Shown here in pieces: positions 25,708 through 44,781 of a stretch of 64,000 nucleotides of DNA. The stretch spans positions 13,429-77,428 of the forward strand of contig LCFP01000004.1 in the NCBI GenBank assembly GCA_000999095.1, written 5' to 3'. This stretch comes from Candidatus Gottesmanbacteria bacterium GW2011_GWA2_43_14. GTDB lineage: Bacteria > Patescibacteriota > Microgenomatia > 2-02-FULL-39-11. Both the position numbers and the translations under genes were made by a program. The notes under the pieces were generated by a model. The model was not told where the DNA came from, did no database searches, and saw only the letters and a list, made by a program, of their open reading frames with translations. The stretch's first letter is position 1. Each line of letters opens with the position of its first letter.

Positions 25708-28700
25708 CATGAGCTGTTTGATTTGCTCTCCCGGAAAATTGGCTACTTTTAACAATACCGGTAATGATATGGCCATAATGTTGTGTAGGTGATATTTTTA
25801 AAATATCGGCAAATCCCGAACTGAGGCGGCCCCTGACTGGGTCAACAAAATAAACATTTAGCTCACCGTTATCAAACTTAACCTCAAATCCGTCCTGGTT
25901 AAAATCAGTAAATTTGTTCTGCAAGTGCCTTATTCTATCTGACACGTTCATCATGCTGATCCCCTGAGCGACCTCGAACAAGAAATTTCTCGTCAGATTT
26001 CTTGTTGAATCAACATGATTAAACAGATTTACCAATTGATTTAGATCCGCTATTTGAGTGGGGTCTCTCTTGAAAATTATGTTTTGTATTTCCGAGGGAT
26101 CTTTTCTGGTACCGTCAGCTTTATAAATCAGTTCCAATACGCCGGGAGGATAGCCTCCGGCGGCTGTTGCAGCAGCCCGGTCAACAGCAAGGGATGAAAT
26201 AAAATTATTGATTTCAACTACCGTCCTTCTCTTATCGGCGGTCAATTCATAAAAGAGCGCCTGCAGTTCTGGACTGGCTCCGATAAAACTTTCCCTTTCA
26301 TAGGGTAATACCGCCGGATTGAATGCCCCCAAACCGGTAATTATATCGGCTAAATCTTTCTTGCCGTCGGCAGTATTAGGACCATATATAATATTTATTA
26401 ATTCAGGTGGTAAACCAGCGTTTTCTGCCGACTCTCTATTTGTGTACGTTATACTGTCAAGAACAGCCTGGTCAAAATCAGCCGGATTGGTCGCAGCTTT
26501 TCTCCTGAATTCGTTTCCATAAGCTAAATAAACTAACTCATCCGGTATATTTGGCTGAAGATCGCTGGGTAATAAATTAATAGTAGACTGTTCTTTCCTC
26601 AGGTTCAAAGTTAAATTTAACCCGCCAATAGGCTCCGTATTGTCAATACCGAGATTTACCGATATCCCGGAATTGCCGATATTTTCCTCAATAATAGGAC
26701 CCCGTTCTATCAGAGCTCCTGTCCGTTCATTTTTATTCATTTCAGTTATGCTGATCGGACCGTGATCAGTAGTAAATGTTTCCGTCTTCGGACCGGCGGT
26801 GGAAACAGTCAGAAGTTCATTAAAAGGATTGCCTTTAATGGCATCCTTAGAAATCTCAATAAGGGTTTTACTTATTACCTGTGCTGTGGAGACTCTGTCC
26901 TGGGCTAAAAGGGATGCCAGCCTGGTATCATAGAGAATCGAAAGTGAATCATTTAATTCTATCTGTATGTTGTTAAGCTGCCGGCGCAAATCTCTTACCT
27001 GGTCTTCCCATCCGTCTGCTTTACCTTTTTCAATATTGGATACTTGCTCTGTAAGTCCAGCGATTTCCTGCTTGATTGATTGACTGTCCTGGTAGGCCTG
27101 CAATCCTGCCGAGTCTCCGGCAAAGAAGGCGTTCGGAGTTGCCCTGTTTTCCAGATTCCAGACACTCATAATTGCTTCTGCCAGTCTGCCTTTGCTTAAT
27201 ATTCTCGAAGTCAAATTATAATTACCGTTTACCCCCTGACTTAAAGCATCTATGCCGAATATTCTTTTTAAAAGAAGACTATAACCTTCATCGCTTAATG
27301 TTTTTGCTAAATCTTCGATCTTAATATTGCCGCTGATAATATCATTGATTAATTCATTAAATTTGTCCGAATTAAAAATTTCACTCTCGACGAGTTTTTG
27401 TAAGCCCCGTTCAGTTTCCTTATCTTCATCACTGACAACCAGAGCTTCACCTGCTTCTTTTCTCTCTCTTAATTTTTTCAGTTCCGCTTCTAATTTAGTT
27501 ACTTTATCGGCAGTTTCTTTGGCGATATCTCCTATTTTCTCTGTAGAAGGCGCGGTAAATCCTGGAATAGTTACATCAAATCCGAAAACCTCCTGTAATA
27601 ATTGATTTCTTTTACGGATTAATGCGTCCAATTTATCTTTTTCACTCTTATATTCTAATCTGGCTGTTTCAATCTCGTTTTTCTTTGTTTCAATTTGATC
27701 TCTCAAGTTATCTAATGTTCCTCCGCTTTTCTCAAAAATAGCTATTTCCTGTTTTACATTATTTATTTCATTTCCAAGCGAGTTATAACTTTCTTCTAAA
27801 GATTCTCTTCTTTCGGTTAATGGAGTTAGTGCATTCTCAGCAGCTTTGGCACCCCTTGGGTCGACATCACTATCTAAAATAGCAATTTTATCAATTATCT
27901 CTTGTTTTCTAGAATCGGTATCAGGTATCAAATCAAGGGGAATAAGCTTTAATCGCTGTAATTCTTCAGACCGCTCAGCCAGTATTTTTTCCGTTCCAGC
28001 TTCTATCTTTTTGGCCGCCTTTAATTCACCACCGATTTGTTTCTGGTCACCAATAATACCCGTATATAAACCGGTTGCCTGTTTTTCTCCAAGATGACTT
28101 TTTAAGAAGGTGATTCTATCTTCTGCTGTTTTTATTTTAGCTTCAATTGTTCCTATTTCGCCTGTAGCTTTTTTAGCTCCTGCTGATTGTTTTCCTTTTG
28201 TCGTTTTGGCAGAATCCCAAGCATCTTTTTTGGAAGTTGCAGTACTTTCTTGAGTTGTAATATCTGTTAGTAATTGGGTATAGCTTTCCTTGGAAGTGGT
28301 TTGTCTCTCGCGGCGGGCTGTTTCAGTTGAAAGTTCATGTTCCTTATTTTCAAGCGTAATCGGGGATTCTTTGGGGTGAAGTACCCGAGCGCCTGATAAT
28401 ATATCTTTTGCTAATTTTTCAAGTTGGCTAGTAATTCCCTCTTCCAATGGTTCTCCTCTGGCTCGGGCGATCATGACTTTTTTGATAATCGGCGCCAGAG
28501 TTTCACCGCCCTCGACCTGGGAAATGGTATCGAAAGCCTTAGTCACCACTTTTACCCTGTCTTCCAGTTCCAATTCTCCCAATTCTTTGTGTCCCCCTGC
28601 TTCTCTTTTATATTCCTGCTCCAAAATCTGCTGGATTTTTTTGGCAAGTCTGATTCGGTGGCGCATTTCCGTCCCCTGAGCCGCTTCTCCCAACACCCTG

Positions 28701-30028
28701 TCGCTCAAATCCATCCAGCCGGCCAGAGTTTCAGGAGAATGGAAATAAAACCCGTTTGCTAGATCCGACCTAAAATCTTCGCACTTTTGCAGAAAAAGTC
28801 CGGCTTCATCACCTTTACCTTGAAAAAGTTGCCTGATAGGATTTTCCGTATCACCAATATCCCGCAGAGCCGGATCGTGAAGATTACCTGGATTAAATGA
28901 CAGAGTAAATCTTGTCGCTCTTTCGGGCTGGCCGCCTTCAGGAATTTTAAACCACCAGCTTCTGATTCTCCTTGTTGTAGCTCGATAAACAAAAGTTGCC
29001 AATAATCCGCCGCCTGCTCCAATCAGCGTATCTAACCTGCCCGCGATTGAAGGATCAACCATACTGCCTAATATACTGTTAGAGTATATATCGTTAAATG
29101 CACCGACATAGGCTCCTCCTCCAGTCATGATCGCAATTCCTGCCCAATCCCAAAAATCATCCCAGTTATTCAAGGCAACCCTTCTACCAATATCCTTATA
29201 TGCTGCAATTTTTCTCGGATCGGTCTCTTTTTCAACAAGTTTACTAATTTGTTGATCGGACATATCTATAGTTATATCCCTGGTACCACCAGTAGTAAGA
29301 TCATAGCCTAACTGATAGGAAATGCTTTTTTCCGCCTGTTCGGCAAACTGATAGACATACATGAGTTCATCGACAGTTTCGAAAATATGCTGGTCTTCTT
29401 TGTTTACATATGCCTGAAGCCTTTTCTCGATATCTTCATTGCTGACGCCATACCATTTATACTGCTGACGGATTTCCTGTATTAATGCTAACTTTTTATT
29501 ATTATCAGCCTCCGGTAATGATAAAACTGAACTGATTCTCTCTTTTCTTTTTTTAATGTCTTTCTCCAATCCTGGACTTCCTGTCCTCTTATACCTTATA
29601 AACTGTCTCTTCTTCTGATCTACTAATGCCTCCCAAGCCCCCGCCCAGTCTCCTTTTAATTCCTCCAGGAGCTTTAAATCATCCTGGTCCATTTTCAAAA
29701 GAATCAGATCCTGCGCTCTTTTATCCCAATAAGGAAATCTTTCCTTGATAACTTCGGCCATCTGACTTAAATCCTTGCCGGTATGTGGATTTTCCAGGAC
29801 TCCGTACAATGTTTCGAGCACATTGTAAGCGTTGTATTCCTGCGAAAGATTCAGCCTGGCTTTAGTATGGCCTGTTATTCCCAATTCCGGCTTGTTGGCA
29901 AGAGGATTAACACCACCGATTTCCCATTTACCATAAACTGAACTGCGAAGCTGTTTATCCTGACTTCCAGAATTATTAACTCTTTGTGCCGGTCCTGTTG
30001 GAGTGATGTCCGGAGCGGTATCTGACAT
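25697..30028 (-). CDS. Giant protein (1443 aa), coiled-coil rich with a glycine-rich hydrophobic segment. No recognisable enzymatic motif.
   Basis: Uninterrupted 4.3-kb ORF. The central part is heptad-like. A hydrophobic Gly-rich stretch lies at about residues 300-350. Confidence 0.55.
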   Translation of the reverse strand: MSDTAPDITPTGPAQRVNNSGSQDKQLRSSVYGKWEIGGVNPLANKPELGITGHTKARLNLSQEYNAYNVLETLYGVLENPHTGKDLSQMAEVIKERFPYWDKRAQDLILLKMDQDDLKLLEELKGDWAGAWEALVDQKKRQFIRYKRTGSPGLEKDIKKRKERISSVLSLPEADNNKKLALIQEIRQQYKWYGVSNEDIEKRLQAYVNKEDQHIFETVDELMYVYQFAEQAEKSISYQLGYDLTTGGTRDITIDMSDQQISKLVEKETDPRKIAAYKDIGRRVALNNWDDFWDWAGIAIMTGGGAYVGAFNDIYSNSILGSMVDPSIAGRLDTLIGAGGGLLATFVYRATTRRIRSWWFKIPEGGQPERATRFTLSFNPGNLHDPALRDIGDTENPIRQLFQGKGDEAGLFLQKCEDFRSDLANGFYFHSPETLAGWMDLSDRVLGEAAQGTEMRHRIRLAKKIQQILEQEYKREAGGHKELGELELEDRVKVVTKAFDTISQVEGGETLAPIIKKVMIARARGEPLEEGITSQLEKLAKDILSGARVLHPKESPITLENKEHELSTETARRERQTTSKESYTQLLTDITTQESTATSKKDAWDSAKTTKGKQSAGAKKATGEIGTIEAKIKTAEDRITFLKSHLGEKQATGLYTGIIGDQKQIGGELKAAKKIEAGTEKILAERSEELQRLKLIPLDLIPDTDSRKQEIIDKIAILDSDVDPRGAKAAENALTPLTERRESLEESYNSLGNEINNVKQEIAIFEKSGGTLDNLRDQIETKKNEIETARLEYKSEKDKLDALIRKRNQLLQEVFGFDVTIPGFTAPSTEKIGDIAKETADKVTKLEAELKKLRERKEAGEALVVSDEDKETERGLQKLVESEIFNSDKFNELINDIISGNIKIEDLAKTLSDEGYSLLLKRIFGIDALSQGVNGNYNLTSRILSKGRLAEAIMSVWNLENRATPNAFFAGDSAGLQAYQDSQSIKQEIAGLTEQVSNIEKGKADGWEDQVRDLRRQLNNIQIELNDSLSILYDTRLASLLAQDRVSTAQVISKTLIEISKDAIKGNPFNELLTVSTAGPKTETFTTDHGPISITEMNKNERTGALIERGPIIEENIGNSGISVNLGIDNTEPIGGLNLTLNLRKEQSTINLLPSDLQPNIPDELVYLAYGNEFRRKAATNPADFDQAVLDSITYTNRESAENAGLPPELINIIYGPNTADGKKDLADIITGLGAFNPAVLPYERESFIGASPELQALFYELTADKRRTVVEINNFISSLAVDRAAATAAGGYPPGVLELIYKADGTRKDPSEIQNIIFKRDPTQIADLNQLVNLFNHVDSTRNLTRNFLFEVAQGISMMNVSDRIRHLQNKFTDFNQDGFEVKFDNGELNVYFVDPVRGRLSSGFADILKISPTQHYGHIITGIVKSSQFSGRANQTAHGKY

Positions 30029-30105: not shown

Positions 30106-31962
30106 ATGGCCGGAGAACAACCAGCGCCGTCACAGGCAGAAATCGTTTCAAGAGGTAAACCTCCTAAACTAGTACCGACAGAAACGCCATTTGCATCTGA
30201 AGCTATCGGGGAAAATGGAAAAGTGACAGCAAAAAAGGAAGCTAAAGATACTGCTGTCATAAAAGCTCCAAAGCTGATTTCCCCTAACCCGGAAATACTT
30301 CAAGAAATTAGATCAAAAATCGGGGATATTCCGGAAGATGCGACCGTTGATAGTCTCATGGAAATTTTAACTAAAGAACATGGATGGGACAAGGATTCCG
30401 CCCCATTAGTCGAAGCGGCGTTTGAAGCTTTAAAACTGGAAAATAAGGGACAAAATCAAACGGAAACTCAAGAGGGAGACGACCAAACAGGGGGCAGTAC
30501 CTCAGCGCAAACTGCCGATGAAGATATAATTCAGGATGAAAAAGAACCGGGAGAAGGTAAAGAGTCTGAAAAGCCCCAGACCCAAAAAGTAAGCGATGTA
30601 GAATCCGACACGGAACAAAATCAACCTACAACAGAAGAGGAACAGCCTGAAGTGTCGGAAATACCATTGTCACAAAAAGTACATGAAGCCTGGCAAGGAG
30701 AAGATGGTGCAGTAATGCTTGTTACAAAAGCTATAGAAGAAGGAAAATTCGCATTAAAAGATTTGGAAGATGATTCTAGAAAGAAAATTACAGACGACTT
30801 GGGAATAATCGATACAACTGATTTAAGAGTTTATGAGGAATTCGAATTCCGAGAAAAACTCCAAAAGGCGATAAGTGAAGTCAATCTTGCTTATACAAAA
30901 GGAAAACAAAGAGAAGATAAAAACTATGAAGTTATTGGTGATGACGGGAGTACTAGAATAATCATTATTCAAGATCATATAGGGCCGATCATAGAAGCAA
31001 CCAGACAACTTGCCAACGAAACTGAAAAAAATGCAGAGAATCAAACAGTGCCCACTGAAAGAGCCAAAAAGGCTCAAGAAGATTTGGACGTACTTGAACC
31101 GATACTAAAACCGGATCCGAACGGCGGTTATTATTTTGATATACAAGAAGAAATAAAAGAGCCTCAGGAACCGCCGGAAATAACACTGCTTCGCCTGCAA
31201 AAAATGGTCGATGATGCCTTAAGATTTTTAGCTTTACCGGATCATATGGACAATGATAATAAAGTGATTGTTGCAGCGGCTATGGATGCATACGGACAAT
31301 TAGTACTTGTCTCTCAAACTGAAGCAGTGAAAGGAGGACTCGAACCGATATCAAATGCACCGCCCGAAGTCAGAATTCCGTTGGCCAGAATGGCATTAAA
31401 CACGTATCAGGAATTCAGGAGAAAAGTCACTACAAAAGGCAAAAAGGCCGAAGACAGCTATAGTGACTGGCAGGAAGTTCAAAAAGAAATTGAGATGCAA
31501 AAGGAAGGCAATGATGAGATAAAAAAATATTTTCGCCAATTTGTTGAAGATAAGGGCAGTTATTATGATGAACGTATTGATAAATTAATTGAAGAAGGAC
31601 ATTTTGTAGAAACGATGTCAGCTGTATTTACAGCTTCATATTTTGGAAAAATTAAAGACCGGTATAGAGCGCTAAAAGCTTCCCAGGTTTTGAAAAAATC
31701 AGGGCTAGCGAAAAAATTCAGTGAACAAAATAGTCCGTGGATTTCTCACTTTATGGAGGCTTTTTTTGGAAATTTAACCCGTCAGGAGGAAAAGAAAAAG
31801 TTGCTTAAGGATATCTTTGACAGATTGCCGATCAACAAATGGAGAGAGGCGGCCGGAACGGTCGGAGGCATGTTTATCATTACCGCGATAGGCAAATTTG
31901 ATGAATTAATGAATTTTGGTACCGAAACAGCTTCCGGTTCACGGAGCCCTCAAGCAGGTTAA
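30106..31962 (+). CDS. Acidic hypothetical protein (618 aa)
   Basis: Long ORF transcribed divergently from the giant protein. The N-terminal half is very acidic and low-complexity. Confidence 0.5.
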   Translation: MAGEQPAPSQAEIVSRGKPPKLVPTETPFASEAIGENGKVTAKKEAKDTAVIKAPKLISPNPEILQEIRSKIGDIPEDATVDSLMEILTKEHGWDKDSAPLVEAAFEALKLENKGQNQTETQEGDDQTGGSTSAQTADEDIIQDEKEPGEGKESEKPQTQKVSDVESDTEQNQPTTEEEQPEVSEIPLSQKVHEAWQGEDGAVMLVTKAIEEGKFALKDLEDDSRKKITDDLGIIDTTDLRVYEEFEFREKLQKAISEVNLAYTKGKQREDKNYEVIGDDGSTRIIIIQDHIGPIIEATRQLANETEKNAENQTVPTERAKKAQEDLDVLEPILKPDPNGGYYFDIQEEIKEPQEPPEITLLRLQKMVDDALRFLALPDHMDNDNKVIVAAAMDAYGQLVLVSQTEAVKGGLEPISNAPPEVRIPLARMALNTYQEFRRKVTTKGKKAEDSYSDWQEVQKEIEMQKEGNDEIKKYFRQFVEDKGSYYDERIDKLIEEGHFVETMSAVFTASYFGKIKDRYRALKASQVLKKSGLAKKFSEQNSPWISHFMEAFFGNLTRQEEKKKLLKDIFDRLPINKWREAAGTVGGMFIITAIGKFDELMNFGTETASGSRSPQAG

Positions 31963-31966
31963 AACC

Positions 31967-32656
31967 ATGTTGCAACAGTTGTTATTTTTCACAGTTTTAT
32001 TTTTCCTGATTTTTTTTATCTCCAAGTCAAACCTGAGCCAATTTCACCGACTGATTATAAAAATCATAGGCCATAAACATATCTCCGTCTGGATTCTTGC
32101 ATTAATATTTCTGCCGGGCACGGTCATTCATGAACTGTCACACTTTGTTGCAGCTACCATCCTGCATGTTCCGACAGGAAAAATGTCGATTTTCCCGACA
32201 ATTGAAAAAAACGGGGAGGCCCGGGCAGGTCACATCATGGTAGCCCGGACAGACCCCTTCCGCCTAAGCCTGATCGGTTTGGCACCGATGATGATCGGTC
32301 TGACTGTTGTCTATTTAACCGGACTATTCCTGATAGGGGATTGGCCGGGTATGCTGGCCGGGGGAAACCGGGTTAAATTTATAAGCGGTTTATTTTTATT
32401 GTTCCAGACAACCTCCGGCATGTTCTCGAGCAAAAGCGACCTTAAAAGTTTCCTCCTGGTTCTGCCTGTTATTCTGCTTTTTCTCCTAACCGGTTATTTT
32501 TCCGGCCTTTCAATCCAGGCAAACCAATCATTTATGGAAACCGTAACCGGTTTATTGACCCGGCTTAATTTTTATCTTCTAATAGCTAGCATTACCGATT
32601 ACTTTTTTTATTTATTCTTTCTGGCAGTAAATTCAGTTTTTGGAAACAGGCGTTAA
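31967..32656 (+). CDS. Polytopic membrane protein with an HExxH motif (putative zinc metalloprotease)
   Basis: HELSHFVAA sits within or next to a TM helix, and there are several further helices. Start chosen at MLQQLLF to avoid overlap. Confidence 0.4.
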
Positions 32657-34512
32657 ACACCCGTCTGTGTGGAAGTAGGGGACTCGGAGGGAGCAGGAGC
32701 AGTCGGCTGGTTGCCGTCAGGTTCCGAAGACTGGTTGAAATAATTTACTAAAGGGCTTTGGTCGCCGGCAGGCGGTACGGGCGGGGAAACCGCGGGTACG
32801 ATAGGTTGCGGGGGAGCGGGAACTACACCTGTTGGCTGTGGAATTATTCCGGGAACAGGTTCGACTGGCTTGTAAGCAGGAACGGGAGCCATAGGCTGTG
32901 ACGGAGCAGCCGGGGAGATGGACGTGCCGAGACATTTCGGACAGGTAGAAATTTGTGTGCCATGCGGCACTTGCCAGCTGTGACTGCAGGTTTGACAGAC
33001 ATAGCTGTCCATTTGCTGATTTGTTTTATCCTCGGGCTTAATCTGGTTGTCGGGATGTTCTGCTACAGCTTCTTCTTTATCAGCGGTTTTGACAGCTTCC
33101 TTGCGGGGCATCATTTTCTTTATGTCAAAAATGAGTTGCTTATTGTTGTAATCAACGCTGATAGTGTCACCAGCAGTTAAATCACCCTTGATAAGATATG
33201 AGGAAACCGGATTTTCAATCACTCTCTGGATGGTTCTTCTCAAAGGCCTGGCACCGTATATAGGGTCAAAACCGATTTCCGCCAGATAGAGTTTGGCATT
33301 AGGAGAAATGGACAGCCCAATACCCTGTTCTTCCAGGATTTTGGTCAGGGTATGCATTTGCAGATCAACGATTTCCAGCATGTGTTCCGGTCCCAGCGGC
33401 CTGAAAATGGTAACCTCATCAAAACGGTTCAATAGTTCCGGACGGAAGAATTTACGGAGTTCCACCATCAGCTTTTTGGAAAGTTTTTCAAATTGCTCTT
33501 CTTCCTTGGCATCCTTCTTGACCTCCGCTGACTTGACCGGCAAAAGCTCATCACTGGCTTCTATCGCCAGCGTAGTGAAGAGCTTCTCGATAGTTCCAGT
33601 CTGCCAGGTATGTTGAGTTGAGTCTTTCCTAATGTAATATTTGCCTTCAGCAATCACGACTTCCTCACCTGTCGGCTTGAAAAAATGCATCTCCCATTTC
33701 TTTATGGGAAATATTTCCTTCCTGCTTTGCCTCTGTTGCATCAAATTGGCATTTGAATCTTTCGTTTGTTTGGCAGACTGCGTTAAAGGTTGTTCTTCTA
33801 CAAGACTGTTGGCGAAAAATTCTTCCAGGGTACCGGTTGTCCAGTCTTTCACCTGTAGGTTTTGCCTGGTCCAAAAACGGTCTCCCAATGTGATAAATTC
33901 TTCATTTTTGAGATTAACGGCATGAGTATCCAGTTTGGCTGTCGGCAGCTGTTCTTTGGGATTGTCGGGTTTGGCATTATAGACAATATGGTCTTTCAGG
34001 TTTTCCAGAAGCTTCGAAGTATGCCATTCTTTGGCAATGGTTGAAGTCCTGAACCAGACAAAGTCATCACGGGTGATAGTTTCACTGCCATCAGCTCCGA
34101 TAACATGCGTATCAATATAGTTTTCCGGAAAACTGCCCGTGGGGGCATCGACTAGTTGACTGCCGGCAAAGTAATCCTTAAGCTGTGTTTTTTTCCACAA
34201 AGTGCCATCTTTATCTTTCTGCCAGACATTACTATCCAATGTGATTATCTCCCTGCCTGTCGGAGAGACAACATAGGTTTTGATCATTTTCGGTTTTTCG
34301 ACAATAGGCGATGAAGGTAAGTTTTTCTTTTCCCAATTAATCATTTCCTCCTGTATGATGCCGCTGCCGAGATTAGAGGTGCAGATCATGATCGTATTTT
34401 TAAAAGAAATGGTATGTCCTTTGTTATCTGTAAGCCGTCCGTCATCAAGAAGCTGGATCAGAATATTAAAGACGTCAGGATGTGCTTTTTCGATCTCATC
34501 GAGAAGTACCAC
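32653..34512 (-). CDS. ClpC-like AAA+ chaperone, C-terminal portion. It covers D2 from Walker B onward, a roughly 290-aa repeat insertion, a zinc ribbon and a Pro-rich tail. It is frameshifted relative to the upstream part.
   Basis: [29 protein letters not shown] (Walker B and sensor region), ...TSN, ...ELLNRFDE, ...GARPLRR. Four roughly 33-aa repeats (G.E.IT....W...K.WxTGTLE.F) are inserted between them. CxxC...CxxC lies near the C-terminus. Confidence 0.6.
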
Positions 34513-36557
34513 CCCTCGCTGCCGAAAAGAATCTCCGCCAAAGATTTGGCCAGCTCGGTTTTACCGACACCGGTTGGCCCCATGAAAATAAAGGAGCCTA
34601 TCGGCCTTTTATTGGACTTTAAGCCCGCCCTTCCGCGTCTGACAGCTTCAGAGACAGCGGAGACTGCTTCTTCCTGATCGATAAGTCTTTTATGAATTGT
34701 CTTTTCCAGTTCCATGAGCTTAAAGGCTTCGTTTTCAGTCAGCCGGGATACGGGAATATTGGTCCAGCGGGCAACAATCTCAGCAATAACTTCTTTATTG
34801 ACCGAGTTGGTGGTGGTGGATTTTTTTATCTGGTACTGTTCTTTCAGCAGATTCAGGTTCTGGACGGTATCCTCGGACTCTTTCTTCAGACTTTCCAGCC
34901 TGATTGTGTCTCCTATCTTTTCCGCTTCTTCTTTCTCGTGCTCCAGTTTCTTCAATTTTGCTTCACTGCTTTTTATTTCCTCAGGTAAAGATATCGCCGG
35001 CAGTCTGACGGCGGCTGCTGCTTCATCAATTAAATCAACAGCCTTATCCGGCAGAAACCTGTCGGCAATATATCTTTGGGAAAGCCTGACAGCTTCTTCG
35101 ATTGTGTCATCCGGAATTTTGACCCGGTGGAAAGCCTCATATTTGTCCCTGATGGCCAAAAGCATCTCAACGGCTGTTTCGGCTGTCGGTTCAGCAACCA
35201 TTATTGGCTGGAACCTTCTTTCCAAAGCCGGATCTTTCTCAATATATTTACGGTATTCCGTAACAGTGGTTGTACCCACCACCTGCAGTTCGCCCCGCGC
35301 TAAGGAAGGTTTAAGGATATTGGAAGCATCCATGGTACCTTCGCCCCCTGAGCCCGCCCCGACCATGTTGTGCAATTCGTCAATAAAAAGAATAACTGAT
35401 CCTGAAGCGGCCTTTACTTCCTTAATCAAATTCTTCAGTCTTTCCTCAAATTCACCTCTGTGCCTGGCTCCGGCGATCAAAGACATCAGATCAAGCTGCA
35501 GTATCTTTTTATTCAAAAGCGTCTCAGGCACGTCACTTCTGGCTATTCTTTGCGCCATGCCTTCGACAATGGCTGTCTTGCCGACTCCGGCGTCACCGAT
35601 TAGAACAGGATTATTTTTAGTTCTGCGTGACAGAATATGGATAACCCTCTCAATTTCCCAGCTCCGGCCGACAACAGGATCAAGTTCTCCCCGGGCAGCC
35701 TTGGCTGTCAGATCTTCAGTAAACTGTTCCAACGTAGTCTGTTTCTTGTCTTCTTTTTTCTTCTCCAGTTCTTTCTTGCCGGTAATTTTCTGGTTCAAAA
35801 CCTCCTGGGTCAGGTGGTTCTTGTTCAAAATTTGGGCAGCCATGCCTTCTCCTTCGTGAGACAAGGCCAAAAGGATGTGCTCAGGCGAGATAAATTCGTA
35901 ACCCAAGGACTTGGCTGTAGACAGGGACAGCTCAAGCACTCTTTTGATTCTGGGTGAAAATTGCGGTGTTCCGGGAAAATTACCTTTTTTGAAGCTTTTT
36001 TCCAAAGCCTGCTGCAAATCAGAGGGTACGGCTTTGCAATCGGAAATCAATTGGTAAATGGATGAATCGGAAAGAAGCGCCCAAAGAACATGCTCCGTAT
36101 CAATATGCTGGACTTTCAGCTCTTTAACTTTAGCAACTGCCTTCATCAGCACATCATTTGCCCTTTGGGTCATCCTGGATAAAACATCCATGCCTACCCT
36201 TTTACCCATATCAATTGAGGCGGCTGTTGTTTGCTGACTGTCGCTCTGATTGACAGGTGCAGGTGAAGCAGCCGGCGCTGTTGTTTGGGTGGAGACGGCT
36301 ACTGATGCAGATGATGGCGTTGCAGCCGGGGGATTGCCGATGCCTGAATAGGCTTGCCCCGATTGGATCGGGGCTTGTTGTCCGGCAGGCGGATTGCCGA
36401 TGCCTGAATAAGCCTGAGGTTGTTCGTTTTGTACTGTTTGGGAAGTATAGGAAACCGAAGCAGATTCCTCCTGCGTATTGGGGGAAACATCAGTCGGTTC
36501 ATTCTTATACTGGTCTTTTTTAAAGTATTTGGTAAACTTAAAGAGTTGACCTGGCAT
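34458..36557 (-). CDS. ClpC-like AAA+ chaperone, N-terminal portion. It covers the low-complexity extension, the Clp_N repeats, D1, a short M-domain and the D2 Walker A, then terminates after the frameshift.
   Basis: HVLWALLSD and HILLAL Clp_N repeats, [18 protein letters not shown] (D1 Walker A), [22 protein letters not shown] (D2 Walker A). The frame is lost just after this. About 45 aa expected between Walker A and Walker B of D2 are missing. Confidence 0.6.
36327..36416. repeat. Two-copy direct repeat (about 30-nt core, 60-nt period) inside the ClpC-like N-terminal extension
   Basis: GGATTGCCGATGCCTGAATA(G/A)GC occurs at 36331 and again at 36391. It encodes the duplicated peptide [11 protein letters not shown]. 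Confidence 0.7.
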
Positions 36558-36717: not shown

Positions 36718-37998
36718 ATGGAACAACACTCTGTACCGCGTAATATTTCCAGCTTCCAATTTCACCTTATCGGTGACATGACGGTCCGCCAATTTGCTTA
36801 TCTTCTCGGAGGCTGCCTTATCGGTTTCGTCCTGTATAAACTGCTGCCTCTGCCGGGATTTTTAGCCATTCCTGCCGCCGGAGCGGCGGTTTTAACCGGT
36901 TTTGCTTTTGCCTTTGTCCCAATTCAGGAAAGGCCGCTGGACAAATGGATTGTCGCATTCATAAAAAGCATAACTTCTCCGACTCAATATCTCTGGCAAA
37001 AACAGGAAGAGATGCCGGACATTTTAGCTTATGCATACAACCGGCCTGTTAAAAGTTTGCCGCAAAACCATCTGGAGGCTCATGCGGATGCTAAAAAAAA
37101 ACTGGATAATTATTTGAACTCTTTGCCTAACCAACCCCACCAGCAAATAAATATCAGGGAAAAACATTATGTAGACAGTACTCTCAAACTCTTCAATACT
37201 ACAAACAGTTTTATTCCGGCAGCAGCTCCTTCATTTACCGCTCCGTCTTCCATACCGCCTGTTTCTGTTTCTGCGCTTCCGTTTACAACGGTGCTTCCGA
37301 TAACCCCTGTCGTCAAACCCGTACAGTCCCCTCCGCCCCCGGTAAAAGCGGATGTCCTCCATCCGCCTTTATCCGCAGCAGTTGCCCCGGTGAATCCTAA
37401 ACCGCTCCCTCCGGCAATACAAAAACCAATTGAAGTCAAAAAAGCGGCGCCCCCACAGCTTCAGCAAATACCGGTTGATCATTCGGAATTAACGGAGATA
37501 CGCCGGGAAAAAGAAAAACTGGAAAAAGAACTGGAAAGACTTAAAGCGGAGATAAGTAAATCTTCCAAAATAACCATCAAACCTGTTGAAGAAAAAGAGC
37601 CGGTCAAACCAACCATCAAGACGGTTACTCCCAAAAGCGCTGTCAATGAAATAGGCATTCCCAAACTTCCCCAGGCTCCAAATATCATTATGGGAGTCAT
37701 CAAAGACAGTAATAAGAGGCTCTTGCCCAATATTATTCTGACCATCAAGGATATCAAAGACAATCCGCACCGGGCTTTGAAAACCAACCGCTTGGGTCAA
37801 TTCTCAACCGCTACCCCCCTGCAAAACGGAACATATTTTGTCGAAGCTGAAGACCCGATGAAAAGATATACTTTTGACATTGCCGAGATCAATTTGTCCG
37901 GCAAGATCTTTCTGCCTATTGAAATTACGGCCAAGGGAGAAAAAGAAAAAATGCGTGAGCAGCTAAACAAAGAACTGTTCAGCAATCCGGGGATATAA
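36718..37998 (+). CDS. Membrane protein with N-terminal TM helices, a Pro-rich linker, a coiled coil and a C-terminal carboxypeptidase-regulatory-like beta-sandwich domain. Candidate T4SS-associated component.
   Basis: Two N-terminal hydrophobic helices. A PxP-rich stretch at about residues 170-250. EKEKLEKELERLKAEI coiled coil. The C-terminal IIMGVIKDSNKRLLPNIILTIKD...NGTYFVEA matches the CarboxypepD_reg pattern. It lies immediately upstream of the VirB4-like ORFs. Confidence 0.5.
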   Translation: MEQHSVPRNISSFQFHLIGDMTVRQFAYLLGGCLIGFVLYKLLPLPGFLAIPAAGAAVLTGFAFAFVPIQERPLDKWIVAFIKSITSPTQYLWQKQEEMPDILAYAYNRPVKSLPQNHLEAHADAKKKLDNYLNSLPNQPHQQINIREKHYVDSTLKLFNTTNSFIPAAAPSFTAPSSIPPVSVSALPFTTVLPITPVVKPVQSPPPPVKADVLHPPLSAAVAPVNPKPLPPAIQKPIEVKKAAPPQLQQIPVDHSELTEIRREKEKLEKELERLKAEISKSSKITIKPVEEKEPVKPTIKTVTPKSAVNEIGIPKLPQAPNIIMGVIKDSNKRLLPNIILTIKDIKDNPHRALKTNRLGQFSTATPLQNGTYFVEAEDPMKRYTFDIAEINLSGKIFLPIEITAKGEKEKMREQLNKELFSNPGI

Positions 37999-38022: not shown

Positions 38023-38694
38023 ATGCAGCCGACTTCAGCACCGATCAGGGCGACTACCCAGGAATTTCTGGATATCGAGGACATCATCGATGATATTTTA
38101 ATCCTGAGAAGCGGCGGAGCGGCGGTTTTAATTGAAACAACTGCCGTCAATTTCGGCCTTTTGTCAGAAGAAGAGCAGGATGCCCTAATTTACGCTTATG
38201 CTTCGTTTTTAAATTCCCTGTCCTTTCCCCTTCAGGTGGTTATCCTGTCAAAGCGCATGGACATTTCTTCTTATATTGAATTCATTCTTCAGGAAGAAAC
38301 CAAACAGCCTAATCCTGTTATTAAAGACAGAATCAGAAATTACCGTGAATTCATACTTTCTACAATCAAAGAAAACCGTGTCCTGGAAAAAAAATTCTAT
38401 TTAGTCGTCCCTTTTTCTCCGTTGGAGTTGGGGATTAAAGAAGCATTTTCCGTATCCAACAAAAAGAAAAAGCTGCCTTTTACTAAAGACTACATCCTTT
38501 CCAGATCAAAAACATCACTTTTTCCCAAAAGAGACCACATCCTGAGACAGCTGGGCCGCATAGGACTTAAAGGCAGGCAGCTATCAACCCAGGAACTGGT
38601 GGAGCTTTTCTACAACCTATACAACCCGACCTTTACCGGTGAAAAACTGGGAGAAACAATAGGTTATACTAAACCGTTAGTTGAAGGGGTTTAA
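38023..38694 (+). CDS. VirB4/TcpF-type conjugative ATPase, N-terminal domain, present as a separate ORF
   Basis: TQEFLDIEDIIDDILILRSGGAAVLIETTAVNFGLLSEEEQDALIYAYASFLNSL resembles the N-terminus of Gram-positive VirB4 homologs. The ORF ends with tandem TAA TAA stops, 6 nt before the next ATG and in the same frame. Confidence 0.55.
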   Translation: MQPTSAPIRATTQEFLDIEDIIDDILILRSGGAAVLIETTAVNFGLLSEEEQDALIYAYASFLNSLSFPLQVVILSKRMDISSYIEFILQEETKQPNPVIKDRIRNYREFILSTIKENRVLEKKFYLVVPFSPLELGIKEAFSVSNKKKKLPFTKDYILSRSKTSLFPKRDHILRQLGRIGLKGRQLSTQELVELFYNLYNPTFTGEKLGETIGYTKPLVEGV

Positions 38695-38700
38695 TAACTT

Positions 38701-40644
38701 ATGCTGTCTTTTTTATCTAAAAAGAAAACTGTCAACATCAATCCAGTCCAGACACCGGTATCTCCGGTCCCACCCGCTCTACAGCCGGCAGGACAAACAC
38801 CCGGTGCATCTGCCGCTCAGCCTGTCCCGGTTCAAACTAACACCGCTTCTAAAGCTGCAGAAATAGCCAAAAACACCCAGCTTCAGGCAGCCAAAGAGAA
38901 AATAACCAAAGGCCTGGTCAATATAAAAGACATTATCGCTCCGTCTTTGGTTGAAGTTGATTTTGACCACATTAGAATCAACAACGTCTTTTACAGGACT
39001 TTGTTCGTGGCCGGTTATCCCCGTTATGTAGCTGCAAATTGGCTGCATCCGCTGCTTTCTTTCGACAAATCCCTTTTTATCTCGATGTATATTTATCCGA
39101 CGGAATCAAAAGTCATCCTGGAAGACCTCAAGAGAAAAATTGCCGAGATGGAAGCGACCATTCAGGTAGATATGAAAAGAGGCAAAGTCATTGACCCGTC
39201 AGTCCAGGTTTCGCTTGATGACGCCTTGGCCCTTCAGGCGCAATTGGCAAAAGGAGCCGAAAGATTTTATCAATTTTCCCTCTACATCACAATTCCTTCC
39301 GAAACAATTGAGGATTTAAACAGGTTTGCTAAAGAGGTTGAATCTACCTTGGGTTCACTTTTGATTATCCCCAAACATGCCACTTTATCACAGGAAGAAG
39401 GATTTAAATCAACCCTGCCGATGTCCATTGACAAGCTTGACGTCACCAGAAATATGGACACTACCTCCCTGGCGACTACCTTTCCCTTTACCACCGCTTC
39501 CTTATCCGCCAACGAAGGCATCCTCTATGGAATCAATGAACATGACGGCAGTCTGGTTATTTTCAACCGTTTCAGTCTGGAAAACAGCAATAGCGTTATC
39601 TTCGGAAAATCCGGTGCCGGCAAATCTTTTCTGGTCAAATTGGAAGTCATGCGTACCCTGATGTTCGGGGCTGATGTTTTTGTCATTGATCCGGAAGGGG
39701 AATACAAGGACATAACCAGGGCTTTGGGTGGTGATCTTCTTGACTTCTCATTCAATTCACCCATCAAAATCAATCCTTTCGACCTGTCAGGCATCGTCAC
39801 TGAAGGTGAAAATGAACTCGGCTTAAAAATCCTCTCCATTCACGGACTGATGAGAGTTATCATGGGTGAACTTTCTCCGACTGAAGACGCCCTGCTGGAT
39901 AAAGCATTGGTCCTTACATATAAACAGAAAGGGATAACGCCGGACCCGGAAACCCAGAAAAAAGAACCGCCTTTGATGGAAGATTTGTACAAGGTGCTTT
40001 TGGGAATGGAAGAGGAAAATGCCCGACACCTGGCAGAACGGCTGGAGAAATTTGTTAAAGGATCACTGGCGGGCATCTTTAATCAGCAGTCAAATGTCTC
40101 CCTGAAAAACCAGCTGACGGTTTTCAACATCAAGGAACTGGAGGCGGAACTGCGCCCGATGGCCATATTTTCCATCCTGGATTTTATCTGGACAAAAATC
40201 AAAAGGGATGTCAAAAAAAGATTGCTGATTGTAGATGAAGCATGGTACCTGATGAAACATCCGGATTCCGCCACCTTCCTCTACGGCATAGCCAAAAGAG
40301 CCCGGAAGTATTATCTCGGCGTAACCACCATCACCCAGGATGTCGAAGACTTCCTCTCAACCGACCACGGCAAAGCCATTATTACCAATTCGAGCCTGCA
40401 GATTCTCCTCAAACAATCAACGGCAGCCATCGATAAGCTGGCAGAGGTTTTTTATCTTTCAAGCGGCGAAAAGCACTTCCTGCTCTCGGCCGGGGTAGGG
40501 GAAGGACTGTTCTTTGCCGGAGCTTCACACGCTGCCGTCCAATTTATTGCATCTTCTCAGGAATATCAGCTGGCGACCAGCAAACCTCAGGAAGTAAGGC
40601 AGGATCCCTCCTTTCCCAACGTGCCTAAAATTCCCAGTGTATAA
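38701..40644 (+). CDS. VirB4/TraE/TrsE-type type IV secretion ATPase, C-terminal ATPase portion
   Basis: Walker A FGKSGAGKSF, Walker B RLLIVDEAWYL, and the conserved KYYLGVTTITQDVEDF region. Confidence 0.75.
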   Translation: MLSFLSKKKTVNINPVQTPVSPVPPALQPAGQTPGASAAQPVPVQTNTASKAAEIAKNTQLQAAKEKITKGLVNIKDIIAPSLVEVDFDHIRINNVFYRTLFVAGYPRYVAANWLHPLLSFDKSLFISMYIYPTESKVILEDLKRKIAEMEATIQVDMKRGKVIDPSVQVSLDDALALQAQLAKGAERFYQFSLYITIPSETIEDLNRFAKEVESTLGSLLIIPKHATLSQEEGFKSTLPMSIDKLDVTRNMDTTSLATTFPFTTASLSANEGILYGINEHDGSLVIFNRFSLENSNSVIFGKSGAGKSFLVKLEVMRTLMFGADVFVIDPEGEYKDITRALGGDLLDFSFNSPIKINPFDLSGIVTEGENELGLKILSIHGLMRVIMGELSPTEDALLDKALVLTYKQKGITPDPETQKKEPPLMEDLYKVLLGMEEENARHLAERLEKFVKGSLAGIFNQQSNVSLKNQLTVFNIKELEAELRPMAIFSILDFIWTKIKRDVKKRLLIVDEAWYLMKHPDSATFLYGIAKRARKYYLGVTTITQDVEDFLSTDHGKAIITNSSLQILLKQSTAAIDKLAEVFYLSSGEKHFLLSAGVGEGLFFAGASHAAVQFIASSQEYQLATSKPQEVRQDPSFPNVPKIPSV

Positions 40645-40653
40645 TAAAAAGGT

Positions 40654-42087
40654 ATGTCCCAAAAACCAGCTCCTTCCCGAGAAATAGAGGCAGAAGGAGA
40701 ACAACAGGGATTTGACCTCGACCAGCAGGATACCGCTACCTGGGCATCACTGGTTCAGCTGACCGGAGCCATCGGTGCCGGAGGATTTCAGTACGTTGAC
40801 GAAACAAGAAAAGCCTTTAATACCGTTAATGATGAGAATATCCATAATAAATTATTAAACCTTGAAAACCCTCAAAAACTCCAAAAAGTCATTTATGACT
40901 ATCAGCTTATCGGGCGTAGGCTGAAAACTCCGGAAAAAGAAAGCACAAAATTTGCCTTCTATAATTTCAAAGGAGAAGTCACCAGAGACAGGTTCGATCG
41001 GGTTGGCCAGGCAATCATAGTTGCCAGACAAATCCATCAATATACCAATAAAGTTGAGACATCGATAAGATTTGATAAAACAATTAAAGCTTATGGTTTC
41101 AGTGAAGAGACTGTCCAACAATTACGCAAAAACCTGACTGAATGGCAGGAAAAAAATCCGGGAGCGGAAATAGATAATATTCTTTCCAACCAATCAAAGA
41201 AACTATACGGGGAACAATGCGCAAAAGATGGAAAAAAAGCTGATAAAAATATTGAAACCGCATTAAAAAAAGACTTAACAACAGCCAGGAAAGAAGCGTT
41301 AATTAAGGTAGATGAATTGGGGGTAAGAGATAGAGCTGAAAGCGTCATCAAAAACGACTTTTTAAATAATCAAAATGCTCCATTAAAAGAAGAACAAATT
41401 AAAACCAGGCTGGAGTATGTTTTTGAAGGAAAAATCCCTGAAGAAAAATTGGCAGGAGTCGTGGAAAAAACGGTTGAATCTGCCAGGACTTTTCAGGAAC
41501 CCGCAAGCAAACCCTTACCCCAGGTAGGAAAATCTCCTTTGCCCCGGTCTTTTTCTTTTCCGCAAATCAGACTTTCGACGATAAAAATTTCCATCAGGTT
41601 ACCGAATTTGGTCGGATTGGGAAATTTGGGCGGGTCCTTACTCAGACAGGGAGCGACAAAACTGGCCGGGAAGTTGGCCGGAAAAGCCGTAGCACAAACA
41701 GCCTTGGGAGCGGCAACGGGAGGAGTGTATAACGCCATCAGTCTCCTAGCTTCATTTTTCGGTATTAATTTGGATGACATAGCTATAAAGGTTGCCTTAT
41801 GGGCCGGAATCCTGGCAGTTGGGGTCCCGGCAGCTATAGTCGTCTTTTTTATCTTTAGCAGCAGTAATTCATCCCGCTTGTTTGATCCCCAAGCTGTAAC
41901 GCAGGAAGAGGTTTTTTACCAAAATTCCAGACATTTTGCCTGGAAAAGGTTTGAGGAGAAAAATCTCAAGATTTTAGATACTTCTGCTTCCTGGATTGCT
42001 TTTGAAAAAGAGCGTCTGGATTTGGACAACCGGCTGGTCGAACGACTATCCCTGGACCCGGACCGGCATAATGATGTGGAGAAATGA
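40654..42087 (+). CDS. Hypothetical protein with a C-terminal TM cluster, possibly a T4SS-associated membrane component
   Basis: 477-aa ORF starting 10 nt after the VirB4 stop. Hydrophobic helices lie at about residues 370-420. Its 3' end overlaps dnaN by 42 nt. Confidence 0.4.
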   Translation: MSQKPAPSREIEAEGEQQGFDLDQQDTATWASLVQLTGAIGAGGFQYVDETRKAFNTVNDENIHNKLLNLENPQKLQKVIYDYQLIGRRLKTPEKESTKFAFYNFKGEVTRDRFDRVGQAIIVARQIHQYTNKVETSIRFDKTIKAYGFSEETVQQLRKNLTEWQEKNPGAEIDNILSNQSKKLYGEQCAKDGKKADKNIETALKKDLTTARKEALIKVDELGVRDRAESVIKNDFLNNQNAPLKEEQIKTRLEYVFEGKIPEEKLAGVVEKTVESARTFQEPASKPLPQVGKSPLPRSFSFPQIRLSTIKISIRLPNLVGLGNLGGSLLRQGATKLAGKLAGKAVAQTALGAATGGVYNAISLLASFFGINLDDIAIKVALWAGILAVGVPAAIVVFFIFSSSNSSRLFDPQAVTQEEVFYQNSRHFAWKRFEEKNLKILDTSASWIAFEKERLDLDNRLVERLSLDPDRHNDVEK

Positions 42088-43155
42088 GATTTTATCGCTT
42101 TTGGGTTTAAAAACTCCCGGTGATAAGGGGCCCGACGATTCAAAAACCAGTTCTTTTTCCGGAAAATTACTTAGAAGATCCAGAAGGAAACGGAAATTAA
42201 ACGCCACTTCGCTTTCTTCCCCTTCGACCTTGGCTTCTACATAATCGCTTTCTTCGCCCACCTGAGGAGTGTTGGCCGACAACCTAAGTCCTTCCTTCTC
42301 AATTTTCATCTTAATGATATTGGCGGCACCGCGGGCAAAGATGGAAGTAGTTTTAACTGCCTGGGTAAATAATTCCTTATCCAGTATCACTCTGGTTTTA
42401 AAACTGTCGGGTATTATTTTTTCAACATTAGGGAATTCTCCGTCAATCAGACGGCTGTAAATTTTAGTATCAGGCATTGAAAATACCACCTGATTTTTAT
42501 TTTCAATGATTGAGATATCCAAATCCGCAGCTTTTAATTCCTGGGCTATTCTGACAACTTCAAAAAGTGATGATGCGGGCAAAACAACATCGAGAAGCTC
42601 GTTCTTTGAAGGAATCGCCACTTCTTCTTTGGACAACCTGTAACCGTCGGTGGCCGACATGGACAATATGCCGTCGTCAATTTTTGTTCTGACTCCGGTT
42701 AAAATCGGCCTTCCTTCATCAATGGAAGCGGCAAAAGCCGTCCTAATGATTGAATCCTTGACTTTGGCAAATGGCAGTTTTCGGTCAAATGATAAAGGCT
42801 GCGGGAAAGTAGGGAAGTCGGCAGGATTACCGATGGCAAAAGAAGCCCTGGTGGTATCGGTTTTGACTTCCAGGTTTTTGTCGGTTGCCGTTATCTCCAG
42901 CTTATCCGCTCCAAGTGAGTTTATAAATTCCGTAAGCAATTTTCCCGGTATGGCCACCTCTCCTTCTTTTTCTATTTTGGCTGAGGTTTGGTAAATGATC
43001 CCGAGTTCCAGATTGGTAGAAAGAAACTCCAATTGGTTTTTAGCACCCCGAAGTAAAATATGGGAAAGAATCGGCAGCTGCGGTCTTAGGGAAATTCCTT
43101 TTCCGACAATTGATAAAGCTCTTACAATATTCTCTTTTAAAATTAATATTTTCAT
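42046..43155 (-). CDS. dnaN: DNA polymerase III beta sliding clamp
   Basis: The N-terminus MKILILKENIVRALSIVGKGISLRPQLPILSHILL is typical DnaN. Three-domain length of 369 aa, downstream of dnaA. Confidence 0.85.
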   Translation of the reverse strand: MKILILKENIVRALSIVGKGISLRPQLPILSHILLRGAKNQLEFLSTNLELGIIYQTSAKIEKEGEVAIPGKLLTEFINSLGADKLEITATDKNLEVKTDTTRASFAIGNPADFPTFPQPLSFDRKLPFAKVKDSIIRTAFAASIDEGRPILTGVRTKIDDGILSMSATDGYRLSKEEVAIPSKNELLDVVLPASSLFEVVRIAQELKAADLDISIIENKNQVVFSMPDTKIYSRLIDGEFPNVEKIIPDSFKTRVILDKELFTQAVKTTSIFARGAANIIKMKIEKEGLRLSANTPQVGEESDYVEAKVEGEESEVAFNFRFLLDLLSNFPEKELVFESSGPLSPGVFKPKSDKISFLHIIMPVRVQG

Positions 43156-43354: not shown

Positions 43355-44695
43355 TTATCCAGAAAACCGGTTTTTTATCCCCAAGATATCACCACGGATT
43401 TTTTCGTCCTGACCAATAAGGTCGCTGATTTTGCGGACTCCGTGAAGTATGGTTGTATGGTCCCGCCCGCCCAAAAGATCACCGATTTGTTCAAGACCTA
43501 TGCCGATTTCCGTTCTTAATAAATAATAAAGAATTTGTCTGGGCAAGCTATAAATTTTATCCCTTTTAGAACTTTTTAATTGGGAAACTTTCAACTGATA
43601 GAAAGCGGCTACAATTTTAACTACTTCTTCCGGTTGCATATTTTTTTCCAGAACGGGAATTCTCAGGGTTTTTCCCAATACATTTTTTACCAGCTCGGCA
43701 TCAAGCGGAATATCTTTGGTTTGCGCCTCACTGATAATCCTGATAAGGAGACCCTCGAGTTTTCTCGTGTTTTCAACGTTGGCTGAAAGTAGCTTGGCGG
43801 CATCCATCGGCAAATCTACCTGCCGCTGTTTAGCTTTTATCAGTAAAATGGCTGTTCTAAGTTCAAAATCAGGGTTGCCGATATCGATGGTCAGACCGCC
43901 CTCAAAACGGGACCTGAGCCTTTCTTCCAACTTGTCAATTTCCTCCGGTTGCCTGTCGCTGGTTATGATAATCTGTTTTTTTGCCTGGTATACAGCGTTG
44001 AACGTATGAAAAAATTCTTCCTGGATGGAATATTTACCGGCGATAAACTGGACGTCATCGATCAGCAGGATATCGGTCTGGCGGTATTTTTTTTTGAAAG
44101 AGGTGGTAGTTTTATTGGAGATAGCCTCGATTATTTCGTTGGTGAATTCTTCACCGGTACAGAAAATAATTTTAATTTTAGGATTTTTGGAAAGTACTGA
44201 ATGTCCGATGGCCTGCATCAGATGGGTTTTGCCCACTCCAGTGCCGCCGTAGAGAAAGAGGGGATTATAGGAAAAACCCGGATTTTTGGAAACGGCGGTG
44301 GCTGCCGCATATGCCATTTGATTGGTTGAGGAAACGGCAAAATTGGCGAAAGTATAGTCTTTGTTCAGTCTGCCCAACTCCGGCAGGAAATTGGCCGGAG
44401 TAACTCTCATGGAAAATAGAGGTCCGTCGATGTGGTCGCCGTTGGTCTTTTTTTTGGCGGCTTTGAAAGACAAAGTTAAATCTTTCTGGGTGTATTGTTT
44501 TAAGGTGTCCCTGATTAAGACCTGGTAGCGTTTCTCGATCAGGTTTATCAACATCGGGTTATTGCAATTAATAACTGCTTCTTTATCATTGAGGGCTTCC
44601 AAAGAGGTTTGGGAGATCAGGGTTTGGAATACTACTTTGCTGACTTGAAGCTGAAGGTCAGCTAAAATAGTTTGCCAAAGACTAACGTTGTCCAT
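43355..44695 (-). CDS. dnaA: Chromosomal replication initiator protein DnaA. Start chosen at MDNVSLWQ.
   Basis: AAA+ Walker A GGTGVGKTHL, Walker B LLIDDVQF, and a C-terminal DNA-binding helix-turn-helix (DHTTILHGVRKI). A perfect DnaA box TTATCCACA lies at 44719-44727, just upstream. Confidence 0.9.
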   Translation of the reverse strand: MDNVSLWQTILADLQLQVSKVVFQTLISQTSLEALNDKEAVINCNNPMLINLIEKRYQVLIRDTLKQYTQKDLTLSFKAAKKKTNGDHIDGPLFSMRVTPANFLPELGRLNKDYTFANFAVSSTNQMAYAAATAVSKNPGFSYNPLFLYGGTGVGKTHLMQAIGHSVLSKNPKIKIIFCTGEEFTNEIIEAISNKTTTSFKKKYRQTDILLIDDVQFIAGKYSIQEEFFHTFNAVYQAKKQIIITSDRQPEEIDKLEERLRSRFEGGLTIDIGNPDFELRTAILLIKAKQRQVDLPMDAAKLLSANVENTRKLEGLLIRIISEAQTKDIPLDAELVKNVLGKTLRIPVLEKNMQPEEVVKIVAAFYQLKVSQLKSSKRDKIYSLPRQILYYLLRTEIGIGLEQIGDLLGGRDHTTILHGVRKISDLIGQDEKIRGDILGIKNRFSG

Positions 44696-44781
44696 AGGAT
44701 TTCCACATCGTAAGAAAGTTATCCACAATTGTCAACGAGCTAGAAATGATATTTTCTATTATTTGTGATATCATTTACAAA

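Follow-up and report, generated by a model that had tools for sequence, protein, structure and literature searches.

A trsD-like gene and virB4 as adjacent cistrons of a Gottesmanbacteria type IV secretion locus, with products that probably rebuild one VirB4 ATPase

Layout of the locus and identity of its two products

The locus described here lies in a window of 64,000 nucleotides (nt) of contig LCFP01000004.1 from Candidatus Gottesmanbacteria bacterium GW2011_GWA2_43_14 (GCA_000999095.1, positions 13,429 to 77,428 of the forward strand) and encodes a VirB4-type ATPase of a type IV secretion system (T4SS) on two adjacent open reading frames, ORF1 and ORF2. Its closest relatives are found in Candidatus Gottesmanbacteria. 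The features of the two genes, in window coordinates, are as follows.

38023..38694, plus strand: ORF1, a TrsD-like protein of 223 amino acids (aa), read here as a separately encoded first N-terminal subdomain of VirB4 ('TraC-like domain', PF26593, in its homologues)
38683..38689, plus strand: Shine-Dalgarno-like GAAGGGG within the 3' end of ORF1, 11 nt ahead of the ORF2 ATG, seen in the sequence and of putative function
38692..38697, plus strand: tandem TAA TAA stops at the end of ORF1, seen in the sequence
38701..40644, plus strand: ORF2, a VirB4-family ATPase of 647 aa without the first N-terminal subdomain, assigned from NCBIfam, Pfam, PDB and TrsE matches
38701..38934, plus strand: first 78 residues of ORF2, starting MLSFLSKKK and continuing as a poorly conserved, P/Q/A-rich, linker-like segment
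39604..39627, plus strand: Walker A motif GKSGAGKS, ORF2 residues 302-309
40222..40239, plus strand: Walker B motif LLIVDE, ORF2 residues 508-513

ORF1 and ORF2 share a reading frame (frame 1) and are set apart by a 6-nt spacer, the junction at 38689-38703 reading GTT TAA TAA CTT ATG on inspection; the sequence is thus as given in a preliminary description of the stretch, which reported in-frame ORFs of 223 and 647 aa separated by TAA TAA CTT. The same description assigned Walker A, Walker B and C-terminal ATPase signatures to the longer ORF, and all three are present: the two motifs listed above, and a match of ORF2 residues 267-626 to PDB 4AG5, the solved C-terminal domain of VirB4 (E 5.9e-45). 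Pfam detects P-loop_TraG (E 1.6e-26), AAA_10 and DUF87 in ORF2, which scores 401 bits on the NCBIfam conju_CD1110 VirB4 model NF045971 (cutoff 325). The match to TIGR00929 begins at position 238 of 792, and the positions matched in these hidden Markov models (HMMs) indicate that ORF2 by itself is without a complete VirB4 N-terminal domain, the missing part being supplied by ORF1. At the very start of ORF2, the pattern M-L-S-F/L-x-K-K is kept among Gottesmanbacteria, and tblastn matches from distant relatives start at residues 45-68. A VirB3 homologue adjoins the cluster upstream, in the form of a PrgI-family ORF at 36718-37998.

No T4SS component was found more often in Patescibacteria than TrsD, for which 2,272 homologues are reported, 1,664 of them beside virB4; it was described as remotely homologous to the N-terminus of VirB4 and was assigned no function (Quinonero-Coronel et al. 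2025, Microb Genom, PMC12102498). ORF1 is encoded between a VirB3-like gene and a VirB4-like ATPase gene, has the length expected of TrsD/TraD (~200-230 aa) and weakly matches positions 14-115 of the NCBIfam TrsD/TraD model NF041427 (E 7.5e-7). It also matches the VirB4 models themselves, and does so where ORF2 does not: on the CD1110-type model, ORF1 occupies positions 25-119 and ORF2 positions 170-730 of 752, and on the VirB4_plasma (Mbov_0397-type) model, ORF1 occupies positions 130-277 (E 4.4e-9) and ORF2 positions 279-876 of 894, so that the two ORFs tile both models without overlap. An AlphaFold2 model of ORF1 (predicted local distance difference test score, pLDDT, 68) had chains of the R388 VirB4 protein TrwK as all nine of its best PDB matches in Foldseek (probability 0.92-1.0). 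Together with the HMM matches, this upholds the proposal of the preliminary description that the 223-aa ORF resembles the VirB4 N-terminus. The sequence of ORF1 as such returned chance matches alone from the PDB (glutathione S-transferase, E 0.055), and our local Pfam scan of it gave no PF26593 match and nothing meaningful (KIAA0319, E 0.06). When a profile of ORF1 homologues was compared with ORF2 by hhalign, no similarity was seen (probability 0.04%), and ORF1 is therefore not a copy of anything retained in ORF2. The claim of homology between TrsD and VirB4 rests on PMC12102498 and on the present tests; the main text of Guglielmini et al. 2014 (PMC4027160), checked for the original statement, does not contain the name 'TrsD'.

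Homologues of ORF1 number 1,408 in a collection of 5.8 billion proteins. The best 120 of these are all stand-alone proteins of 219-240 aa from Candidatus Gottesmanbacteria, 70-89% identical to ORF1; PF26593 is precomputed on every one of the 120, and the UniRef name of one of them is 'TraC-like domain-containing protein'. The TrsD-like proteins of other Patescibacteria (P0124-P0273) carry disordered tails rich in Q, P, N, S and T, 0-490 aa in length, after the domain of ~220 aa. Many of these tails end in a short conserved motif, LPP[IL][AP]EI (e.g. LPPIAEI) or HPFVVEEL.D.YG, which may serve for docking.

Conservation of the split and natural fusions

The locus was compared with 80 loci, one per species, from Gottesman-, Roizman- and Shapirobacteria and other Microgenomates. 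In all 80 the ORF1 homologue ends in a stop codon and a separate VirB4 ORF follows. The closest relatives L001, L002 and L012 have their stop at the homologous codon, the proteins ending in EGA, EGI and EGA, respectively, as compared with EGV in the window. Junctions vary from ATGA overlaps (-4 nt) through spacers of 0-30 nt to gaps of up to ~200 nt. A comparison of orthologous loci for a fused or a split arrangement had been proposed in the preliminary description; the arrangement is split throughout this set, and the case in which all relatives carry a fused gene did not arise. The expectation voiced there that a split VirB4 would be unusual does not hold either, as TrsD paired with VirB4 is standard in Patescibacteria, being the commonest pair of T4SS components reported there in 2025 (PMC12102498), and pSK41/pGO1 has this pair too. 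The two-gene layout is real, typical of the lineage and already published in kind, and the locus is not a broken gene.

ORF1, searched against 1.84 billion cluster representatives, yielded 2,274 matches, among them a natural single-chain TrsD-VirB4 fusion of 787 aa (P0161). Residues 8-201 of ORF1 align to residues 6-199 of this protein with 49% identity and residues 79-632 of ORF2 to its residues 213-767 with 66% identity, the two parts being collinear with a link of 13 residues between them. This map and the tiling of the HMMs bear out the earlier suggestion of a genuine two-polypeptide VirB4, in which the ORFs are complementary pieces of a VirB4 of normal length. The fusion gene lies on three contigs, which come from two independent sources, within the synteny PrgI, fusion, ..., DnaN (L082 4001-6364, L083 877-3240). 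Searching in turn with P0161, 43 of the best 120 clusters were fusions, 56-94% identical and 783-897 aa long, some of them from Candidatus Amesbacteria (fusion clusters include P0274-P0296, P0313 and P0317); the other 77 were VirB4-only, and some of these are 80-88% identical to the VirB4 part of the fusion. We also note nine clusters of VirB4 homologues in Patescibacteria, 1158-1215 aa long, that carry intein and homing-endonuclease Pfam domains (PF14890, PF14528; P0311, P0312, P0315, P0321, P0322, P0363, P0365, P0374, P0390).

An AlphaFold2 model of P0161 (mc5d2d035aac6; pLDDT 76, predicted template modelling score 0.62) superposes over its full length on R388 TrwK/VirB4 (8rtd_O; 842 columns, TMq 0.65, TMt 0.64, E 5e-28). 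Within this model, residues 16-200 (the TrsD part) and 218-360 (the next subdomain) follow the same order of secondary structure: three strands, helix, strand, two long helices, strand, helix, strand. This likeness between predicted subdomains hints that the N-terminal domain of VirB4 may contain an ancient internal duplication, to be set beside the lack of sequence similarity between ORF1 and ORF2 in hhalign.

When fused and split forms are aligned, a variable link of a few to ~100 residues joins the TrsD domain to the VirB4 body. The ORF1 stop and the ORF2 start of the window fall inside this link, and the P/Q/A-rich N-terminal segment of ORF2 aligns to the variable linker of the fused proteins. 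We lean slightly towards the view that TrsD is a detachable first subdomain of VirB4 and that the break, lying in a hypervariable, disordered linker, has been switched between the split and the fused state among close Microgenomates; as part of the same view, the linker would be kept on TrsD as a tail (up to 490 aa) in some lineages and on VirB4 in the window. What seems to be new beyond PMC12102498, where TrsD-VirB4 fusions are not mentioned, is a sizeable set of such natural fusions in close relatives and the placing of the break within the variable linker.

Taken as a whole, the locus very probably consists of two cistrons of the Patescibacteria T4SS ATPase, trsD-like and virB4, whose chains rebuild one VirB4. 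ORF1 and ORF2 would be made as separate polypeptides from one transcript, as suggested by the Shine-Dalgarno-like GAAGGGG, by the spacer of 6 nt and by junctions that are tight or overlap in relatives. ORF2 would initiate at its own conserved ATG, aided by the GAAGGGG in the end of ORF1, and GAAGGAG or GAAGGT stands at the matching place in the junctions of the closest relatives L001, L002 and L012. This initiation would probably be translationally coupled, because the spacer is 6 nt here and ATGA overlaps occur in relatives. Given the natural single-chain fusions and the end-to-end superposition of the fusion model on TrwK, the two chains would most likely associate non-covalently into a complete VirB4 protomer. 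The N-terminal part of the rebuilt protomer would then dock on VirB3/PrgI at the membrane; in the R388 structure, the N-terminal part of the VirB4 protomer contacts VirB3. As the break would sit in a hypervariable, disordered linker between domains, lineages could carry the two parts split or fused without loss of function.

Competing explanations

Several observations weigh against the reassembly of the two chains into one VirB4. The score of ORF1 on the TrsD/TraD model is weak (29 bits) and far under the family cutoff of 200 bits. Compared with TrsD of pSK41 by hhalign, the ORF1 profile aligns over the full length with a weak score (E 1e-3, probability 19.5%). The confidence of the ORF1 model is moderate at its pLDDT of 68, and in Foldseek it matches TrwK with weak E-values, from 3e-3. 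With regard to translation, 11 nt is a long distance between a Shine-Dalgarno-like motif and the ATG, and many distant relatives have no obvious motif of this kind. Finally, TrsD homologues of Gracilibacteria are reported not to lie beside virB4 (PMC12102498), so that TrsD may also have roles independent of VirB4.

The last of these points leads to the one serious alternative that remains. According to it, ORF1 has no more than a common ancestry with the VirB4 N-terminus, acts on its own as an accessory or regulatory protein and does not rebuild the VirB4 protomer, and ORF2 is a naturally short VirB4 comparable to archaeal or HerA-like relatives of ~600 aa. In addition to the unlinked TrsD of Gracilibacteria (PMC12102498), the long disordered tails of many ORF1 homologues, with their conserved C-terminal motifs, suggest other partners, and the like order of secondary structure in the TrsD part and the next subdomain, as modelled, suggests that a VirB4 with one subdomain may be viable. 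We nevertheless regard an independent ORF1 as unlikely. Natural fusions recur in the canonical order, and their fold matches TrwK over the full length; adjacency is strict and coupling tight in all 80 Microgenomates loci; and essentiality in strain ML1 is common to TrsD and VirB4 (PMC12102498).

Far less probable is a recent nonsense pseudogenisation, in which a once single-chain virB4 was disabled by a stop in this genome. The same frame of the two ORFs and the 6 nt between them are what such an event would leave, single-chain TrsD-VirB4 proteins are known in related lineages, and a neighbouring ClpB-like gene in the window does bear a disabling deletion (see below). Against it, the stop stands at the homologous codon in the independent relatives L001, L002 and L012, every one of the 80 species has the split, the ORF2 start is conserved in Gottesmanbacteria, and neither ORF shows further lesions. 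Selection on ORF1 was assessed from raw proportions of nonsynonymous (pN) and synonymous (pS) differences to six Gottesmanbacteria orthologues, the NG86 dN/dS being undefined (dS = -1) through synonymous saturation. With pS at 0.75-0.87 (saturated) and pN at 0.06-0.16, pN/pS comes to 0.08-0.19, a range indicating that ORF1 is under purifying selection. Judged on these sequences, the two hallmarks of a pseudogene, a lesion missing from orthologues and relaxed selection, are both wanting, and the possibility of pseudogenisation raised in the preliminary description falls with them, also in view of the 1,408 homologues of ORF1.

Programmed readthrough or recoding of the stop, which would produce some full-length VirB4 of 870 aa beside the two separate chains, appears just as improbable. 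The junction is in frame and three codons long, and fused proteins are evidently functional in relatives, as readthrough would have it. Relative to the TrsD-like gene, the VirB4 gene of the 80 loci lies in frame 0 in 20 cases, in frame +1 in 21 and in frame +2 in 39; 60 of the 80 are thus out of frame or have an ATGA overlap, and there is no conserved mechanism. Since frame and spacing of the junction vary in this way, readthrough is not a conserved feature, and in the window itself two successive TAA, the strongest possible termination signal, would block it. The same free variation makes the in-frame TAA TAA uninformative: a shared frame has a prior expectation of one in three and is seen in 20 of the 80 relatives, and an immediate second in-frame stop follows the ORF1 homologue in six of the 80, neither feature being more than chance, so that the weight placed on the in-frame tandem stop in the preliminary description was not justified.

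ORF2 likewise ends in TAA TAA (40642-40647); among the 52 long ORFs of the window, ORF1 and ORF2 alone have a second in-frame stop directly after the first. Frame 1 is shared by the four cluster genes (starts at 36718, 38023, 38701 and 40654). A recoding signal made up of the tandem stop and the frame shared by the four genes was considered and rejected, as neither feature is conserved in relatives; on comparison of the sequences, both are probably coincidence.

A sequencing or assembly error that turned a sense codon into a stop is scarcely credible, even though the window apparently comes from a metagenome-type genome and the 136-nt gap in the ClpB-like gene could be an assembly artefact: two adjacent codons would need to be miscalled, and the same stop position is found in many independently assembled genomes, the split in all 80 related species disposing of the miscalled bases that had been considered earlier.

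For annotation, we suggest that two genes be called at this locus, trsD-like and virB4, with no pseudogene flag. The occurrence of two-chain and single-chain forms in close relatives provides a 'Rosetta stone' argument suggesting that TrsD is part of the VirB4 motor. Structural studies of this machine, on which these epibiotic bacteria depend for life on their hosts, could take their lead from that idea. If TrsD is indeed a detachable subdomain, the T4SS component found most often in Patescibacteria would gain a concrete structural role, and a natural system in which to probe the VirB4 N-terminus would be at hand.

Neighbouring genes and comparison with known systems

The other genes of the cluster and those directly downstream are listed below.

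36718..37998, plus strand: PrgI/VirB3-like membrane protein of 426 aa with a long C-terminal extension, the first gene of the cluster (Pfam PF12666 PrgI, E 6.9e-10, residues 6-90)
40654..42087, plus strand: ORF of 477 aa with a hydrophobic C-terminal segment, in the same frame and 9 nt past ORF2, placed in the cluster by position alone
42046-43155, minus strand: DnaN, downstream of the cluster
43355-44728, minus strand: DnaA, downstream of the cluster

A PrgI/VirB3-like gene is also found 5' of the VirB4 gene in L082/L083 and, as a trsC-like ORF, in pSK41. The protein of the window is unusually long (426 aa, versus 273 aa in L082); its middle is rich in proline, and it has a coiled-coil-like stretch and, at the C-terminus, a weak CarboxypepD_reg-like domain. 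The 477-aa ORF, for which Pfam and NCBIfam scans found no family, is possibly another secretion-system component; its place is taken in L082 by different genes (M23 peptidase). Two large ORFs that flank the cluster, of 1443 aa (25697-30028, minus strand) and 618 aa (30106-31962, plus strand), gave no Pfam family at E <= 0.001.

The truly damaged gene of the neighbourhood is a ClpB/ClpC-like gene at 32653-36557 on the minus strand, broken into ORFs of 699 and 619 aa that overlap by 55 nt and either a real pseudogene or the product of an assembly error. The gene is one intact frame in eight relatives (L002, L004, L005, L006, L009, L011, L012 and L013), where 46-47 extra codons after FGSE include the pore loop GYVGY of the second nucleotide-binding domain (NBD2). 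The window has the two bases GG at this place (~34513-34514; junction ~34510-34515), which amounts to a deletion of ~136 nt and a frameshift. In the 619-aa ORF (32656-34512, minus strand), residues 60-372 form a stretch of ~310 residues between AAA_2 and ClpB_D2-small with no Pfam match, which may be a lineage-specific insertion; the ClpB-like proteins of relatives likewise continue with non-canonical sequence.

With respect to published systems, T4SS loci of Microgenomatia lie near dnaN and dnaA and VirB6 is scarce in this group, TrsD is essential, like VirB4, in Southlakia epibionticum ML1, and outside Patescibacteria TrsD is found only in the pGO1 subclass of MPF_FATA (PMC12102498). A FEMS review of T4SSs from 2025 (PMC12857230) makes no mention of TrsD or of a split VirB4. 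The VirB3-VirB4 fusions of some conjugative systems, with which the gene order PrgI, TrsD, VirB4 is collinear, show that evolution can shift where VirB3 ends and where the N-terminus of VirB4 gives way to its body. They differ from the present locus in being fusions and not fissions; none is seen at the locus or reported in Patescibacteria (PMC12102498).

ORF1 and ORF2 together cover the same HMM positions as the single-chain VirB4 proteins (R388 TrwK, Agrobacterium VirB4, and the CD1110- and Mbov_0397-types of Firmicutes and Mollicutes) and have the same Walker A and B motifs and C-terminal domain, and in overall fold the fused homologue agrees with them. The difference is that the first subdomain of ~200 residues is a separate polypeptide at the locus. 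Closer still is trsD-trsE (traD-traE) of the pSK41/pGO1 subclass of MPF_FATA, with the same gene order and near-identical sizes: pSK41 (NC_005024) encodes, in sequence, a trsC-like ORF, TrsD (227 aa) and TrsE, the product of a DUF87/VirB4-like gene (672 aa). Over 590 aa, ORF2 and TrsE share 28% identity (E 3e-48), and ORF1 aligns with TrsD over its full length, but very weakly (20% identity). The pSK41 genes belong to a plasmid conjugation system, whereas the locus is chromosomal and its system apparently essential in Patescibacteria, and ORF2 has the extra P/Q/A-rich N-terminal segment. The nearest counterpart is the pair of TrsD and VirB4 described in Patescibacteria (PMC12102498), in which, as here, a small TrsD-like gene lies directly 5' of virB4 in a Microgenomates-type host, with PrgI/VirB3 nearby and dnaN and dnaA adjacent near the origin, and from which the locus shows no difference in kind.

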